NCBI GenBank assembly: GCA_965197475.1
Contig: CBDANF010000003.1
Span: 800,001-864,000, forward strand
DNA: 64,000 nt
Origin: Candidatus Poribacteria bacterium
Lineage (GTDB): Bacteria > Poribacteria > WGA-4E > WGA-3G
Reading direction: 5' to 3'
Shown here one piece after another: positions 44,160 to 51,592 of this stretch. The position numbers and the translations under genes were made by a program. Within the stretch, counting starts at the first letter, position 1. Every line of letters starts with the position of its first letter. The notes beneath the pieces were generated by a model that was given only the letters and a program-made list of their open reading frames with translations, was not told the origin of the DNA and ran no database searches.

Positions 44160-44895
44160 TAGTAAAACCTGTAATTACTTATACACTTTTATAATATCAT
44201 CAATAGAGGTCTCAGCGTTGTATTGACGTATTCGCTTGATGTTAGCGAAATCTTTCTCAATCGGATTCAACTCCGGTGAATACGGCGGTAAAAACAACAA
44301 ACTCGCACCGCATTCCCGGATCAATGCTTCTGTTTGTGAACCTTTGTGGAAAGAGGCATTATCCATAATCACAACGTGGCTGTCGTCAAGCAAAGGACAT
44401 AACATCTCCGAAAGCCATGCGTTGAAGGCAACCGCATCGCAACTACCTTCGAAAAGCACAGGCACTGTGAAACATCCATCAAGACGTGCCGCAATCAAGG
44501 TTGTGGTGGTATACCGATGACTTGGCACTTTATCTTCAACACGGACACCTTTCGGGCATAAGCATACCGACGGAAATCGGTTTCGGTGAAACCACTTTCG
44601 TCAAGATAAACCGGTTTTTTGCCATGCTCGTGTGTCTCTTGTTGAAGTGCCGAGAGATACTCTTGGCGTTTTACCGGACACTGTTCTTTGTAGGTCGTGG
44701 TCTTTTTTTTCGCGTGATATTGAGTTTTGCCAAGGCATAAAAGATGCCGTTTGTTGAAACACCGAAGTGTTTGGCACGTTCGGCGAGTGTGCTATCGGGA
44801 AAATCGGCAACATGTTGTTGAAGCGCATCATAATCAATGTGTCGGGGCCCTTTGGGACCCGGCTTCTCATAGGCAAAGGGGTCTTCTGCTTCTAA
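44160..44895 (-). mobile_element. IS630 copy 2, truncated
   Basis: Matches 14730-15465 with two substitutions noticed; 5' end missing. Confidence 0.92.
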
Positions 44896-45189
44896 TACCA
44901 TATCTAATTGACAATATAACATAAAGCGTATATATTCTATTGCAACCTTTTGAAATAAAGTGAGGAAGCAATGAATAAAAAAGTTCCCAAAATTACCGAG
45001 AGTGTTGAAGAAATCAAATCCCTTATGAAGTGCTCTGCCCAAAGCTATCAAAAGCAAAGGCTCTTCATGTTGTATCATTTACAAAGTGGTCAAGCAAAAA
45101 ATCGTAAGCAAGTTGCCGATTTGTTAGGTGTGCATCGCACGACGATTGGAAACTGGTTGTCGTCATACGAAACAGGTGGTCTTGAAATA
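44896..45189 (+). mobile_element. 5' fragment of a second IS630-like transposase (HTH)
   Basis: Begins TACCATATC after TAA; KQRLFMLYHLQSG...VADLLGVHRTTIGNWLSSYETGGLE. Confidence 0.7.
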
Positions 45190-45321
45190 GTATCAAATGA
45201 CCATAGGATAGCTGGAAGGCTGATGTTCATTGGCTTCCCAGCGATCGTTGATGAGTGGGTTGCGTTGGGATCGCGAGCATCCTCTTTGAGAAATGATGCG
45301 TTTAGCGATAAACGTGTCTAA

Positions 45322-45350
45322 AGTATAGCAAAACCGGTAGCGGTTGTCAA
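45322..45350 (-). promoter_or_regulatory. Near-consensus outward-facing sigma70 promoter in the DUF1670 element
   Basis: Minus strand TTGACA-N17-TATACT. Confidence 0.6.
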
Positions 45351-45417
45351 CCATATTTTCAAGGCACCTGCCCCGGTTTTGCGAAGTAAAGTTCGTCGGG
45401 AACATAGGATTAGGGTC

Positions 45418-46302
45418 TCATTGGGCTTCTCCTTGGTGAGTGGCTTCATCGTTTGAGTCTGAATTGGCAAGGTTTGCATCTATGGCTTGGAGTTGGGGCT
45501 GCGGAATCAGGTCCAGATATTGAGTGATAACGCGTTTAGAAAGTCGGGTGATCTGTGAGATTTTATCAATATCTGTGGTAGCGGTGCGAACGACTTTGAC
45601 GCTCTCATAATCGCGAATGTATCTATCAACTGCCTCCTTAGAGTGTTTGGTCTTTGCGGCAATCCTGGGGGTGAGATGTCCTTGAAGATAGAGGGTTATG
45701 ATCTCTTTCTTATGGGTAATAGCCCCCGATAAGTCATGGATATTGCCACGGGTGGGCAAGAGTTCTCCAGTGGTTTTTTGCCATTCATTAACATAATCAC
45801 AGACAACGGCATCGCAGACATTGAGCAAAACTGCCAAGTCGAGTTGTGTCAATAATGCCCCTTGGTCATAAGCTTGATGACACCAGCGGACCAAGCGATT
45901 GATCCGCAATTGCCGGGAGGTGAAACCGTTTCTAAAAGATTCAATATCCTCTGCGGCGAGGTAGGTCAGGATGATGGGTTTCATCCGAGTTTTGACGATG
46001 GACTTTCCTCTTTCTGGATGTTCATCAATAGGGACGGCCATCCAAACGAGTTGTCCATAACTTAGGAAACGCTCATCTGGGAGTTGATCACCGGTGGCGA
46101 GTTTTTCCAAGGGGAGGGTAATTACGAAATAGTCTTCAACGGTCTTGAGAATATCATCAACAATGGCGGTGGCAGTGACTTCGCCTTTGTCATACCCGTA
46201 GTCATTGAGAAAGCGATGGATAAGCAACTGTCGTAGGGATTTATCGTTGATGCGTCTGAATTTCTTCTCGTTGATTTGCGTGCGTGTTAGAGGTTTGCTC
46301 AT
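45418..46302 (-). CDS. DUF1670-like HTH protein B
   Basis: RLVRWCHQAYDQGALLTQLDLAVLL, LPTRGNIHDLSGAITHKKEII, HSKEAVDRYIRDY. Confidence 0.8.
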   Translation of the reverse strand: MSKPLTRTQINEKKFRRINDKSLRQLLIHRFLNDYGYDKGEVTATAIVDDILKTVEDYFVITLPLEKLATGDQLPDERFLSYGQLVWMAVPIDEHPERGKSIVKTRMKPIILTYLAAEDIESFRNGFTSRQLRINRLVRWCHQAYDQGALLTQLDLAVLLNVCDAVVCDYVNEWQKTTGELLPTRGNIHDLSGAITHKKEIITLYLQGHLTPRIAAKTKHSKEAVDRYIRDYESVKVVRTATTDIDKISQITRLSKRVITQYLDLIPQPQLQAIDANLANSDSNDEATHQGEAQ

Positions 46303-47099
46303 GAGAGATCCTCCTTTTTTGTGTCCTCTGGTTCTGGGTGAAGGAGTTGGGTCATGCGATCGGTGTGTTGATATTCCTTGAACAGCGAGAGATACTCGCG
46401 TATCAACCGGTCAGAGAGATGAGAAATCAGGCGTATCTGAGCGTTAGGGAACCCTTGATGATGGAGCGTGGCAACTTGTGTGAAGTCCCTCAAGTAGCGG
46501 TAGACAGCCCGTTCGGAGTGGTTCGTCTTTTGCTCAATCTCGGTGAAGGTGTATGCTTTGAAGTACAGCTCGAGAATCTGCGTCTTATGAGACAGTCCCG
46601 GGCCCATGTCGTGTTTCGCCCCGCGCGTCATCACGAAATAGCCGGACTGCTTCAACGCTCGGATGTCGCGTTTGACGGTGGCAGGACTGGTGGTTAATAA
46701 CACCGCCAAATCCTCATAACTCAGCAAGGCTTCTTGGTCATAAGCTTCTTGGGTCAATCGGAGGATCCGATGCCGTCTGAGTCCTGCGAGCCCATAAGTC
46801 GCTAAAACTTCAAGGTCGGCTTCAACATCGTTGAGTTTGAGTCGACAGGAGACTTTTTTCGCTAAAGCGATGTGTTTGCCTGCGGGTTCCTCAGCGGCGA
46901 CTGCCTCGTAGCAGATTTGCCCTGATGTGAGTTGCACATCGGCATGTTGTTCAAAGTAGGTAGAAATCTGTTTATAGTAGGCTTCAGCAACGAGAGGCAT
47001 GAGATTAAAGTCTGCTGAAATCTTCTGAATAATCGCGGCTCTGGCATTCTTGGATTCGAGCCGAGTGATACCGTAAGCGGTATCCTTCTTGCGGTTCAT
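46299..47099 (-). CDS. DUF1670-like HTH protein A
   Basis: RILRLTQEAYDQEALLSYEDLAVLL, TRGAKHDMGPGLSHK, HSERAVYRYLRDF; GGAGG RBS favours ATG 47099. Confidence 0.8.
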   Translation of the reverse strand: MNRKKDTAYGITRLESKNARAAIIQKISADFNLMPLVAEAYYKQISTYFEQHADVQLTSGQICYEAVAAEEPAGKHIALAKKVSCRLKLNDVEADLEVLATYGLAGLRRHRILRLTQEAYDQEALLSYEDLAVLLTTSPATVKRDIRALKQSGYFVMTRGAKHDMGPGLSHKTQILELYFKAYTFTEIEQKTNHSERAVYRYLRDFTQVATLHHQGFPNAQIRLISHLSDRLIREYLSLFKEYQHTDRMTQLLHPEPEDTKKEDLS

Positions 47100-47349
47100 A
47101 TTGACCTCCATGAATAGATTATCGGGGATCCGAGGACATCTACTCGTTAGTTTAACGAATACTAATAGTATAACTCATGGGGTCATTTGATACAAACTAT
47201 AAGTAAAGAAATAAGTTGAGTTGGGTTTCGCTGTGCTCTACCCCGCCAAATGCCATAGGCGTATTTGGCGTTGATTCCCTACACTTGATTTCTTATTTCG
47301 AACTCACGTTTACTATAGTTTGGACAATTTCATCCTATCAGGACTTCGG

Positions 47350-48331
47350 ACCAGGTGTTAAATATGGTTTGTAAGCACACTTGAGACAGCTGCTGGTGTC
47401 TATCAAAAAATCATGGCAACACTTTATGATGTCTATTTCCCATGCGTAGAAGCACTGCGTCCGGGGCCAAAAAGTCGTTGTCCTGATAGTGAAATTCTCA
47501 CATTTGTTTGGGCTTCTTGAACTGACAGGAAGATAACGAACTCACAGGATACAACCTTATCAAGCACAACTCGGACATCTTTTCCCATATTTACCGGAAC
47601 GCTCTCGCTTCAATCGAAGTATGCGAAACCTGTGCCACGCAAGCGAAAACTCCGGAGGATTTTGACACAGTTCTTACCAGATGATAGGGTTTTCATTGTA
47701 GATAGTTTTCCTATCCCGGTTTGCGATTTCAAGCGTGCTGCGACTTCTACATCGTCTCTAAAATGTGCTGATGGCACCGGCACCTCGGCAACTTATGGAA
47801 AGTGTGCCACAAAAAGGCTTGACACTTTCTTAAGGTTTCGTGGTAGTCTGATAACCACCGTTTACGAACTATCTGTTGATTTGTGGTCGCCACTGCGGAT
47901 ACAGATGATCAAGAAATGCTCAGCTTACTATGTGAACGCGGCACTTGTCCTATTATCCTTGGAGATAAAGGATATTTCCGAGTAACTTGAGACTGATTTA
48001 CTTGAAACAGACAATGTGCGTCTTTTACCGACGCGGTGTCCAAATCAGAAAACACAATACCCAAAGCCGTTTCGGAAGTTGCACGGTAAAACGGTGGCGG
48101 ATTGAGACGACTATCAGTCAACTCACAAATCAGTTTAATGTTTCACAAATACGCGCCCGCGCTCATTGAAGTTTTCAAACACGGTTGAGCAATAAGTTGA
48201 TGGTTGGACATTAGGTGTTTTTTGAATCAATATTTAGGATGCCCGTTAATGGCACTCAAAGATGTCGTTTATACATAAACAATTTCAAAAAAGATAGAAA
48301 CATATTACAAAAAGTTAACTAACACAAGGCG
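47350..48331 (+). mobile_element. IS982-family remnant (multiply frameshifted)
   Basis: Fragments PGPKSRCPDSEILT, PERSRFNR, IVDSFPIPVC, GDKGY, RWRIETTISQL. Confidence 0.7.
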
Positions 48332-48351
48332 TTATTTCTCAGGAGGTATTC

Positions 48352-50099
48352 ATGAATAATCCAAAATCTGGCTCAAAAAACCCTAAAAGCAAAACAAACA
48401 CAAAAGAAAACGGCAATAACATATCTGATACAAACTTTATCCGACAAGCAATTGAAGAAGATATAGCATCAAATAGATTTGATGGGAGGGTGCATACCCG
48501 ATTTCCTCCCGAACCGAGTGGATACCTCCATATCGGTCACGCCAAAGCCATCTGTATTAGTTTCGGCATCGCCGAAGACTATGGCGGACTTTACAACCTC
48601 CGATTCGACGACAGTAATCCGATCACAGAAGAGAGTGAATACGTAGAAGCGATTAAACGGGATGTCCGTTGGCTCGGATTTAATTGGGAGGAACGCGAAT
48701 TCCATGCCTCTGACTATTTCGAAACACTTTATGAATATGCTGTCAAACTGATAGAGAAAGGGAAAGCTTACGTCTGTGATCTGACACCAGAGGAAACGCG
48801 CACTTATCGTGGCACTTTAGTGACAGCCGGCAAAGATAGTCCCTACCGAAACCGTTCTATTGAAGAAAATCTAACGTTGTTCCGTGGGATGTGCGATGGT
48901 AAATTTTCCGACGGTTCTCGTACTCTCCGCGCCAAAATTGATATGGCAAGTCCGAATTTAAATATGCGCGACCCTGTGATGTATCGTGTTCTCCACACCC
49001 CACACTATCGACATGGGACCAATTGGTGCATCTATCCTACCTACGATTTCACACATGGACAATCCGATTCGATCGAAGGCGTTACACATTCCTTATGTGA
49101 CGTTCAGTTTGAAGATCATCGTCCGTTATATGACTGGTTTTTGGAATCGTTGGAAATTTACTCACCTCGACAGATTGAATTTGCTCGACTGAACCTTACC
49201 TACACTATACTATACTTGGTAAGCGGAAACTCAAAATCCTCGTTGAACAAGGACACGTCAAAGGGTGGGACGATCCGAGACTACCCACACTTGCGGGTAT
49301 GCGTCGTCGCGGTTATACTCCAGAATCTATCCGGGATTTCTGCAATCGCATCGGTGTGTCAAAAGCCGACAATCTTATTGAGATAGGACAATTGGAATAC
49401 TCTATCCGAAATGATCTGAACCGTCGCGCGTCTCGTGTGATGGGTGTCCTTAATCCGATTAAGGTTATTATTGATAACTATCCGGAAGGACAAGTTGAAA
49501 TGCTTGATGCCGATAATAATCCGGAAGATGAAAATGCAGGTACAAGAGAAATTCCATTTTCTCGAGAAATCTACATTGAACGTGAAGATTTTATGGAAGA
49601 CCCGCCGCGAAAATTTTATAGATTTGCTCCCGGACGAGAGGTTCGGCTTAAACATGCATACTATATCACCTGCGACCACGTTGTTAAAGATGAAAACACT
49701 GGTGAAATCGTTGATATCCACTGCACTTATGATCCAAAAACTCGTGGTGGTTGGTCTGATGATGAACGGAGGGTACAAGGCACACTGCACTGGGTTTCTG
49801 CTGAACATGCTGTTGATGCTGAGGTGCGCCTATACGGTTCGCTCTTTACAGAGCGCGAACCGGAAAACGTAGCGGATGGCACCGATTGGATACAATTCCT
49901 CAATCCGAATTCTTTAGAGATTCTAAATAATTGCAAGGTTGAACCGAGTCTTGTTGAGGCAATGCCTGAAAGTCGATATCAGTTCCTACGGATGGGATAT
50001 TTTTGCGTTGATCCAGACACAACACCAGAAAAATCGGTATTCAATCGTACAGTACCGCTGCGGGATAGCTGGGCAAAAATTCAGAAAGGACAGAAATGA
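48352..50099 (+). pseudogene. glnS: Glutamine--tRNA ligase, frameshifted at about 49210
   Basis: [46 protein letters not shown]; 5-bp duplication CTATA. Confidence 0.9.
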
Positions 50100-51592
50100 A
50101 CAAAATACCTATTCCAAATGATCAAGTCAGGGTTCGTATGGCACCCTCTCCAACCGGTTTCTTACATATCGGTGGTGCGAGGACAGCACTATTCAATTGG
50201 GTGTTCGCCAAACACCACAACGGCAAATTCATCTTACGGATTGATGATACAGATAAGGCGCGTTCCACAGACGAATCTATGCATGAAATCTATACGGCAA
50301 TGAAGTGGTTAGGTCTTGAGTGGGACGAAGGCGGTGATAAAGGTGGAACCTACGGACCTTACGTGCAATCCGAACGGAAAGCCATCTACGAAAAATACGT
50401 TACGCAGCTGCTTGAAAACAGCAATGCATACCACTGCTATTGTACCCCCGAAGAATTAGAAGACATCCGCACAGAAGCGCGCACCGCGAAATCTACACGA
50501 TCCTACGACGGACGGTGCAAACACCTTACATCAGAAAACATTGAACGTTATATGGCAGAAGGCAGAAAACCGACCGTCCGTATAAAAATGCCTGACGCAC
50601 CAATCCGTGTTGACGACCTTATTCTCGGTTCACGCGACATTGATCCCGCCACCTTAGAGGATGAAGTGATTGTCCGTTCAAACGGCATGCCGAATTACAA
50701 TCTCACCTCTATTATAGACGATGTAGAAATGCAAATTACGCATGTAATCAGAGGAACAGAACACCTCAACAACACACCGAAACAGATTGCAATTGCGAAT
50801 GCACTCGGTTTGAATCTGCCACAATTCGCACATATTCCGCTGGTGCTTGATGATACCGGTAGAAAACTGAGTAAACGTCATCACGGTGACCTTGTCGCTG
50901 TCAACCGATACCGTGAGCAAGGGTATCTACCCGAAGCGATGCTGAACTTCGTTGCAAGACTCGGTTGGTCTTACGACGATAAACAGGAAATCTTCTCTGT
51001 TGATGAACTTATAGATAAATTTGACCTCGCACGGGTTGGCAAAAGCGGTAGTGTGTTTGATATTAAGAAGTTGGAGTGGCTCAACTCCCACTATATTAAC
51101 CAACTTGATGTGGCAGCACGGACAGACGCGGTGATACCTTTCTGGGAACAAGAAGGTTTAGTGGATTCCACGTCAAAGCGAGACTGGCTTGAGAAGATTG
51201 TGGAAGCCGTGGGTGAACGTCTTACAACGTTTCAAGACATCGTTCCACAAACTCGTTATTTCTTTACCGATGATTTTGAGTATGAGTCGAAAGCGGTCAA
51301 GAAATGGTGGGGAGGTTCAGACGAAAAGAAGCAAAAAACTTGTGAGATTCTGACAAATCTCGGACAGATTTTGGAAGAAGTTTCTGCGTTTGATCTCGAA
51401 ACGGTAGAAACTGCTATTTGGAAATACACAGATGAAAACGACATCAAACGCGTCGCTGCAATGCAGGCAATGCGGATTGCGCTGACGGGAACATCGTTCG
51501 GTCCAAGCCTTTTTGATATTGTTATCCTGCTCGGCAAAGACGAGGTTTTGAAGCGAATTCAAAAGGCGATAGCGGATTTAACACAAAAATAA
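50096..51592 (+). CDS. gltX: Glutamate--tRNA ligase
   Basis: [20 protein letters not shown] zinc motif. Confidence 0.95.

Follow-up and report, generated by a model that had tools for sequence, protein, structure and literature searches.

A site- and orientation-specific insertion element of Candidatus Poribacteria with two coupled DUF1670 paralogues as its only genes

The stretch of DNA analysed here ('the window', 64,000 nucleotides, positions 800,001 to 864,000 of contig CBDANF010000003.1, GenBank assembly GCA_965197475.1) comes from a Candidatus Poribacteria bacterium and carries an element whose only genes are two coupled paralogues, A and B, of DUF1670, a family without assigned function in Pfam. 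On the most likely reading of the evidence, this is an insertion element that is autonomous, specific in both site and orientation, and a member of a so far undescribed family. It is almost certainly a real mobile element that inserts at specific sites and preserves the open reading frame (ORF) of its host gene. That the A and B proteins are themselves the recombinase is given a probability of about 0.5. No paper on DUF1670, on PF07900 or on insertion sequences targeting the C-terminal domain (CTD) of the type IX secretion system (T9SS) was found in the full-text literature.

The genome to which the window belongs (G000; 5.7 Mb in three contigs, 92.7% complete) contains 18 full-length copies of the element (93–100% identity) and two internally deleted copies, all with the same ends. 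Four of these copies (L008–L011) show no differences over the entire element at loci with unrelated flanks, and five others (L012–L016) differ from them at 1–12 positions. Identical copies at unrelated loci reflect a recent burst of activity. The right flanks of the copies in this genome are likewise unrelated to each other. The element was also found at 76 loci in metagenome-assembled genomes of other Poribacteria, with both ends recovered at 67 of them, and its distribution is patchy, 11 of 41 relatives' genomes containing it (G000 included). In contigs from sponge metagenomes, sequencing depth rises sharply over the element, and internal deletions resembling miniature inverted-repeat transposable elements were found with joints at 45216>47166 and 45338>47166. 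The original prediction, which was made from the letters of the window alone, had proposed a mobile element; same-ended copies at different loci, some of them identical, and empty sites now substantiate this proposal.

That prediction had also described perfect 13-bp inverted repeats enclosing 2004 bp. The repeats are present as described, but the element is 12 bp longer than was thought and the repeats are subterminal (Table 1). Tips of the form AAATAG-…-AAACTAT are common to the 20 copies in G000 and the 67 loci of other Poribacteria, each copy in G000 starting with AAATAG-TATCAAATGACC and ending with GGTCATTTGATAC-AAACTAT. The tips were placed at 45185 and 47200 because these 20 copies, the 67 loci elsewhere and an orthologous pair of sites, filled in G010 and empty in G024, agree. 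Breaks in the sponge metagenome contigs fall at 45187/45188 and 47200–47202. AAATAG is constant in 20 of 20 copies in G000, while the codon that precedes it is variable. A perfect inverted repeat of 13 bp would by itself be marginal, with about 0.15 pairs expected by chance in the 4.5 kb scanned according to our own estimate. The exact 13-mer occurs 38 times in the 5.7-Mb genome, and all of these occurrences are ends of the 20 copies; with up to two mismatches it was matched 110 times outside the copies, compared with about 126 matches expected by chance (own estimate).

No same-ended element with other genes, and no larger partner, was found in G000. Elsewhere, 65 of the 67 loci with both ends measure 1.9–2.1 kb. 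The alternative offered by the original prediction, a non-autonomous derivative of a larger element, is not supported by these two results. Two loci are longer, and one of them (L215, 3140 bp) contains a nested IS4-like insertion sequence of the DDE_Tnp_1 family (L215 2886–3896) that truncates gene A.

Table 1. Coordinates of the element, its parts and the adjoining features in the window.
Feature	Position	Strand	Description
Whole element	45185..47200	- (both genes on the minus strand)	2016 bp; AAATAGTATCAAATGACC … GGTCATTTGATACAAACTAT
Left tip AAATAG	45185..45190	+	Lys-stop on the target-gene strand, taking the place of the displaced host ORF end
Left subterminal inverted repeat GTATCAAATGACC	45190..45202	.	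5 nt inside the tip
Right subterminal inverted repeat GGTCATTTGATAC	47181..47193	.	7 nt inside the tip
Right tip AAACTAT	47194..47200	+	20/20 copies in G000 and 66/67 loci elsewhere; the bases that follow vary like natural gene ends
Gene A, DUF1670	46299..47111	-	270 aa; PF07900 at 205.1 bits (cut-off 25) plus HTH_11
Gene B, DUF1670	45418..46302	-	294 aa; PF07900 at 208.1 bits (cut-off 25)
Constrained non-coding segment	45185..45417	-	233 nt, downstream of B
Outward sigma-70-like promoter (predicted)	45322..45350	-	TTGACA-17-TATACT with upstream TG; directed across the left repeat and out into the flank; antisense relative to the target gene
Hairpin-capable segment GATCGCTGGGA…TTCCAGCTATC	45207..45247	-	next to the left repeat
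Weak promoter for A (predicted)	47167..47195	-	TTGTAT-N17-TATACT; overlaps the right repeat
Displaced Lys-stop AAG TAA	47201..47206	+	here carried over from the C2 copy together with its flank
Truncated 5' part of an IS630-family element	44893..45187	+	abuts the left tip; HTH_23/HTH_29 and weak NF033545 matches
Segmental duplication, 6.4 kb	45182..51580	+	shared with C2:1160540-1166933; left breakpoint is the left tip of the element

Eighteen of the 20 copies in G000 are located at the 3' ends of genes that end in a T9SS type-A sorting domain, here called the CTD. The left flanks of these 18 copies resemble each other over more than 100 bp and vary in the manner of coding sequence; they encode …NYPNPFNPETWIPY…WDG.N..GE.VASGVYFYTL.AG.F.ATRKM.I.K, ending exactly at the element. 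The identity of the domain was established with TIGR04183 (42 and 30.4 bits, cut-off 23) and FlgD_ig (32.6, cut-off 27). A hidden Markov model (HMM) built from the CTD ends was run over all stop-to-stop ORFs of the genome and recovered 48 ORFs ending with the domain. The element lies directly behind 18 of them, all ending …AAA TAG and with a left junction that always reads …nnn AAA TAG, and the other 30 are uninserted.

On the right side of the copies in G000, the triplet behind AAACTAT is AAG (14) or AAA (5), with TAA, TAG or TGA after it. The 30 uninserted CTD genes naturally end in AAG (17), AAA (12) or another codon (1), and an example of such a target is the CTD gene end …AAGATGTTGATTCTG AAG TAA…. 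Since the codons at the right junctions match natural gene ends, the displaced original Lys-stop is, on the simplest reading, what sits there. Read in the same way, the junction sequences show an element that slips in behind the penultimate codon, ahead of the final Lys codon, and brings its own AAA-TAG, so that the host protein is left unchanged. Among the loci of other Poribacteria, 57 of 67 are at CTD gene ends (55 by a regular expression, L179 and L189 by eye), and their right junctions read AAG (34) or AAA (20), followed by TAA (28), TAG (22) or TGA (3). In every reconstructed target the bases directly 3' of the insertion point are AA, in most cases as part of AAR. Insertions that are not at a CTD comprise L008, the window copy beside a fragment of IS630, those in a palindromic repeat and four other sites.

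A direct comparison of a filled and an empty site was provided by an old insertion that is common to G010, G003 and, as a decayed remnant, G000. The short form is …gattttg[AAATAG…AAACTAT]aaataaacacag… in G010 and …gattttgaaataaacacag… in G024; over a longer stretch, the filled site reads …gatgttgattttg[AAATAG…AAACTAT]aaataaacacagtattatgctaaatcctg… and the empty site …gatgttgattttgaaataaacacagaaccatgctaaatcctg…. The palindromic repeat is the target of a 76%-identical sublineage with the same tips, found in two genomes (G035 and G026) of another genus in the same order. Its filled sites read …CCGAGTTTTGAAG[element]AAAAAACTCGGTTT… (short form GAAG[element]AAAAAACTCGG) in 4 of 4 copies in G035 and 1 of 2 in G026. 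These genomes contain 59 and 26 uninterrupted repeats (85 together), most of them CCGAGTTTTGAAGAAAAAACTCGG. No target-site duplication was detected at the orthologous filled and empty site or at the repeat targets, and the junctions are ambiguous by 2–5 nt, these being bases common to the tip AAATAG and the target AAR…. The precise target, the Lys-stop supplied by the element, the lack of a duplication and the outward promoter had escaped the original prediction. Searches for empty sites via the right flanks of L015 and L009 found none, synteny not being conserved or the flank being another repeat.

Several further observations concern these sites. The palindromic repeat often occurs in arrays with a spacing of about 159–194 bp (for example G035:C1 1894822-1895424 and 3456492-3457152, and in G026). 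Element-free orthologous sites were found at L235 (G041), L232 (G019) and L233 (G046), which read …TTTTG AAATAGTATCATGC…, …AAATAGTACCATGC… and …AAATAATATCATGC…, respectively. They share up to 11 nt with the left tip of the element (AAATAGTATCA), which may be a footprint, an attB-like core or chance. At L111–L117, in genomes that have no DUF1670 genes (G013, G018, G023, G007, G017 and G014), solitary left-end remnants of about 75–170 nt are located directly behind CTD genes, whose ORFs still end in the AAA-TAG that the remnants supply. Selection may preserve this stop-bearing tip while the remaining element decays.

Both genes are members of DUF1670, as had been suspected: HMM searches placed A and B in PF07900 far above the cut-off. 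They are also coupled paralogues, as predicted. Gene B begins within the last 4 nt of gene A, in an ATGA overlap of start and stop codons, and the two proteins are 34% identical over 191 aa (E 1e-26). Most copies in G000 keep both ORFs at full length. The pooled pN/pS was 0.157 for A (nine distinct sequences) and 0.055 for B (eight distinct sequences), and A and B are under purifying selection. Residues A144, H197, K198, H220 and Y228 are invariant in B and 44 distant full-length relatives, and in the same alignment conservation reaches at least 90% at R139, Q147, D155, P183, G186, D190, G192 and Y262. The same H-K…H…Y set is found in the alignment of A, with no variation at H175, K176 or Y206 and conservation of at least 90% at H198.

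The DUF1670 family is large, with 1004 representatives of 50%-identity clusters at E <= 0.001 with B. Five relatives of 529–559 aa are natural A-B fusions, others have two or three DUF1670 repeats, and one longer relative has a DnaG-type zinc ribbon. No known nuclease or recombinase domain was found in the fusions or the multi-repeat proteins, and for the triple-repeat protein P0136 no locus was found in the genome contigs searched. One copy in G000 (L006, C3:685919-687923) has a frameshift that fuses A and B into a single ORF of 564 aa, mirroring the natural fusions.

An AlphaFold2 model of B (pLDDT 88) consists of an N-terminal helical domain with a beta-hairpin (residues 1–125), a winged helix (126–192) and two modules like a helix-turn-helix (HTH; 193–290). 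In this model the invariant polar residues are located in the linker and the second HTH. Prediction of a complex of A and B gave scores of 0.26 and 0.11 against a mark of 0.32, which speaks neither for nor against binding.

Downstream of B, the 233-nt non-coding segment is strongly constrained. Among the copies in G000 its mean pairwise difference is 1.9%, compared with 7.3% and 13.7% at the third codon positions of B and A, respectively. The predicted outward promoter in this segment has 11 of 12 consensus matches and is the joint best of the region, together with a site inside IS630. Its hexamers and their position are kept in 17 of 17 Poribacteria sequences displayed, in which the surroundings have diverged, and are not found in the distant locus L230. 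The promoter pattern was fitted by 50 distinct sequences from 94 loci, a count in which failing loci are not included. The promoter that had been predicted for A at the right end is present on the minus strand, but its -35 hexamer matches at only three of six positions and it was not called by a consensus scan; the outward site at the opposite end is far better.

No structure in the segment was supported. In 40 sequences 89.5% of cells of the hairpin-capable segment pair, and the hairpin is unsupported by covariation because 0 of 10 pairs changed on both sides and shuffled sequences did equally well. RNAalifold found no consensus structure for the transcribed stretch (-0.08 kcal/mol), Rfam gave no match for the non-coding segment, and no match of 8 nt or more between element and target was found, save one 8-mer in the palindrome-targeting sublineage.

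Relatives of the gene pair are also found outside the Poribacteria. Through P0143, which is 42% identical to B, relatives were located on short contigs labelled Thermoanaerobaculia, Acidimicrobiales, Actinomycetota, Gemmatimonadales and Pseudomonadota. Three of these five distant loci, the ones under the labels Thermoanaerobaculia, Actinomycetota and Pseudomonadota, are on contigs of sufficient length, and all three have an overlapping A-B pair. Two of them carry the repeat core TCAAATGA(C/G)C beside the gene pair, and the third, L226, has a diverged form, TCGTATGAGCC. The inverted repeats are TCAAATGACCATAGGA / TCCTCTGGTCATTTGA in L230, TCAAATGAGCCG / CGGTTCATTTGA in L228 and TCGTATGAGCCCTAC / GTAGGGCTCAAACGA in L226. 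The B protein of L230 is 56% identical to that of the window. One end of L230 reads …CTG ATG AAA TAG TATCAAATGACC behind an ORF ending GIYLLRV…K.LVLMK, and at the other end TTATTT is followed across the boundary by ATAGTTT…TCAAATGACC. As judged from its sequence, L230 is built like the window element and has a target of the same kind, a CTD-like gene end.

The proposal that A and B are the recombinase is made because the genes are under selection and translationally coupled, occur as natural fusions, share invariant H, K, H and Y residues and are conserved together with the repeat core. In the mechanism that we envisage, A and B would form a hetero-oligomer that uses its several HTH and winged-helix modules to bind both the target and the subterminal repeats. 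Conservative cutting and rejoining would follow, probably via an excised circle as in IS110/IS1111 or in elements with tyrosine or serine recombinases, and the predicted circle junction would read …GATACAAACTAT joined to AAATAGTATC…. The invariant His-Lys…His…Tyr, together with the conserved Arg and Asp, would make up the active site, with Tyr as the likely nucleophile. After excision, transcription from the outward promoter would cross the circle junction, enter A-B and turn the genes on; in the integrated state this promoter would give an RNA antisense to the end of the host gene.

Several results weigh against this mechanism. Pfam, NCBIfam, PHROGs and PADLOC revealed no catalytic domain in A or B, the matches being confined to HTH families and DUF1670; in PHROGs A alone was matched, as 'transcriptional regulator', and in PADLOC neither protein was. 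Foldseek searches of the Protein Data Bank (PDB) with full-length B gave nothing at E <= 0.001, the Pax5 paired domain being among the weak matches. A VIA search returned only winged-helix and HTH folds (Z <= 6.2, all tied), with no recombinase or RNase-H-like fold among the 50 rows listed. The N-terminal domain of B folded alone gave a poor model (pLDDT 59.7, best Z 3.0) that is too uncertain for interpretation, and a sequence-profile search of the PDB gave nothing relevant, only a designed HTH repeat. The spacing of H-K…H…Y, which we take to be like that of box II of tyrosine recombinases, was supported by no tool, and no HxxR is present, the catalytic set of these enzymes being R-K-H-R-H/W-Y; an hhalign comparison of the DUF1670 profile with the only PF00589 protein of the genome gave a probability of 0.56%. 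G000 has two unlinked Y1 HUH genes (PF01797) and this one tyrosine recombinase gene (PF00589), which could conceivably act in trans. Co-occurrence with Y1_Tnp cannot separate the hypotheses because Y1_Tnp is found in 34 of 41 relatives, with or without the element. No circle junction was seen in the assembled sponge metagenome contigs, in which rare forms are dropped. Finally, the 100% identity of L001–L003, which in comparison with G020 had swapped flanks, results at least partly from recombination or duplication rather than transposition.

The original prediction had seen no DDE, HUH, serine or tyrosine recombinase motif in the element, and Pfam, NCBIfam, fold and profile searches agree with it, for DEDD as well. 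At E <= 1, neither protein matched a DDE family in Pfam or NCBIfam, the fold searches covering residues 126–273 of B best. The NF0335xx transposase models, which represent ISfinder families in NCBIfam, were likewise without a match to either protein at E <= 1. Neither A nor B contains the DEDD domains PF01548 and PF02371, the Y1 HUH domain PF01797, the resolvase domain PF00239 or the phage integrase domain PF00589. PF01548 was not found in G000 (92.7% complete) either, nor was PF00239; a Y2 search of this genome was made without a positive control. The ESM Atlas gave only small archaeal HTH clusters with scores <= 0.81. The winged helix of Topo VI-A/Spo11, the top match of the VIA search (Z 6.2), was set aside as it was tied with many ordinary winged helices. 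The single PF00589 protein of G000 (L231 1462-2073 = C3:2069627-2070238) has 203 aa, starts at the catalytic domain and is without an N-terminal DNA-binding domain.

The main alternative, which we consider rather unlikely, is that A and B only recognize and synapse DNA and recruit an unlinked enzyme, such as a Y1 HUH/RAYT-like protein, a tyrosine recombinase, a topoisomerase or a repair enzyme, in the way that IMEX recruit XerCD. Each fold recognized in B is DNA-binding, candidate PF01797 and PF00589 proteins are encoded in G000, and Y1_Tnp is common among the relatives; HUH or tyrosine chemistry would fit the fixed orientation, the adjacency to a short motif and the lack of a target duplication, and a hairpin-capable segment adjoins the left repeat. 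However, invariant H, K, H and Y residues in both paralogues, over more than 40 distant sequences, would be unusual for pure DNA-binding modules, and the joint occurrence of gene pair and repeat core under unrelated phylum labels is harder to explain if one host enzyme is needed. The repeat junction is also unlike known dif sequences. G010, which has a full copy and no Y1_Tnp match, argues weakly in the same direction, the insertion being old and the genome 94% complete.

An RNA component appears improbable, and could be combined with either A and B or an unlinked enzyme as the recombinase. Here an outward transcript of about 130 nt, which would span the left end and extend into the flank, would guide or license recombination like a bridge RNA or omega RNA. 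In its favour, every Poribacteria sublineage keeps a strong promoter amid diverging sequence, conservation of the non-coding segment is about 4–7 times that of third codon positions, and the sublineage with the same tips and a different target, the palindromic repeat, has a non-coding segment that is only 41–64% identical. Against this stand the lack of element-target matches of at least 8 nt other than the one 8-mer in that sublineage, of a consensus structure in RNAalifold, of covarying pairs in the hairpin (0/10) and of any match in Rfam; moreover, a candidate AUCAAC match to the target is absent from a sublineage with the same target. Very improbable is a non-autonomous passenger cassette, with two regulators and borrowed ends moved by a foreign transposase, or spread solely by homologous recombination between CTD gene ends. 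Such an origin would account for the missing catalytic domain, for left flanks that are alike and encode the same domain, and for the shuffling of L001–L003 by recombination. It is opposed by the absence of a same-ended partner in the genome, by unrelated right flanks and insertions at non-CTD sites, and by purifying selection on A and B within one genome. DDE transposases, the abundant kind in this genome, make target duplications. DDE elements were excluded as the movers because insertion is precise and without duplication.

The element can be set beside known systems. It resembles IS110/IS1111, especially IS4321/IS5075-like elements of the IS1111 group, in its subterminal repeats, its single position and orientation, a target that is often a repeated palindrome and the absence of a duplication. 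This likeness is one of behaviour and not of membership, and a promoter across the circle junction is plausible in the element. Unlike IS110/IS1111, it has no DEDD transposase, two HTH-only paralogues instead of one gene and no supported structure resembling a bridge RNA. With IS200/IS605 and REP/RAYT systems it shares the lack of a duplication, the short motif, the fixed orientation, a hairpin-capable segment (seen at the left end) and miniature derivatives; it differs in having no HUH/Y1 gene, ends that are inverted repeats, two large HTH proteins and a hairpin without covariation.

Like IMEX, which exploit host XerCD, the element has no recognizable recombinase of its own, and like Tn7, which inserts downstream of glmS, and islands that rebuild tRNA 3' ends, it uses a 'safe' conserved gene end and leaves the host product unharmed. 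In contrast to these systems, its targets are dozens of paralogous gene ends rather than dif or a single site, it is multi-copy, it has no TnsABCD-like genes, and the last codon and stop are replaced by the element's own. Finally, weak matches of A and B to HTH_23, HTH_28 and HTH_29, below the Pfam cut-offs, recall the N-terminal HTH of IS630/Tc1-mariner transposases, but the element has neither a DDE_3 domain nor a TA duplication.

The copy in the window has a history of its own. The original prediction held that the left inverted repeat cuts an IS630-like ORF exactly at its edge. As far as 45187 the IS630 fragment shows 100% identity with two intact copies, which from there continue from GGTCTTGAAA into AACTCTTAGAG. 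The right flank in the window is not IS630 and equals the right flank of the C2 copy. The junction is thus a rearrangement joint at the tip and not a clean insertion. The segmental duplication shared with C2 is 99.1% identical over 6400 bp, the first 3761 bp being identical, and on C2 it is a CTD gene that precedes the element (L003). The duplication may have arisen, for example, by break-induced copying from another copy. One-ended transposition into IS630 was rejected as the origin of the window copy, there being no remainder of IS630 after the 6.4-kb segment.

The right end of the duplication is near the 3' end of a coding region. Within the duplication, the window copy of glnS, the gene for glutaminyl-tRNA synthetase (48352–50099), is broken by a 5-nt insertion, and its C2 twin is open for 580 aa; from its sequence the window glnS looks like a decaying duplicate. 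The neighbourhood is a patchwork of mobile-element debris, with IS630-family pieces at 44175–44528 (DDE_3, minus strand) and 44893–45187 (5' HTH, plus strand). A dispersed repeat of about 36–38 nt at 47240–47320 has matches of 85–97% at more than 25 other places in G000.

Insertion sequences are classed by the chemistry of their transposases as DDE, DEDD, HUH, serine, tyrosine or Cas1. The two proteins of this clearly active and widespread element fall outside these classes, which points to either new chemistry or a new borrowing of host enzymes, and a concrete function is hereby proposed for DUF1670, a domain of unknown function for which no paper was found in full-text searches. Tentatively, and with somewhat less than even odds, DUF1670 as a whole may be an unrecognized class of recombinases or transposases made of winged-helix and HTH modules, which would occur in bacteria and archaea as selfish elements that home to gene ends and rebuild stop codons. 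Insertion at the last codon with an own Lys-stop is an unusually clean 'harmless landing', in which the coding sequence of a protein domain serves as a dispersed attachment site. If the system can be reconstituted, a small, site-specific and duplication-free means of insertion would be of interest to genome engineers, and if it is true that the HTH modules or the outward transcript set the target, it would be a compact system for site-specific DNA insertion. In the Poribacteria themselves, which are sponge symbionts, the element drives rearrangements, such as the 6.4-kb duplication and exchanges of flanks, and puts a predicted outward promoter antisense to many genes for secreted proteins.

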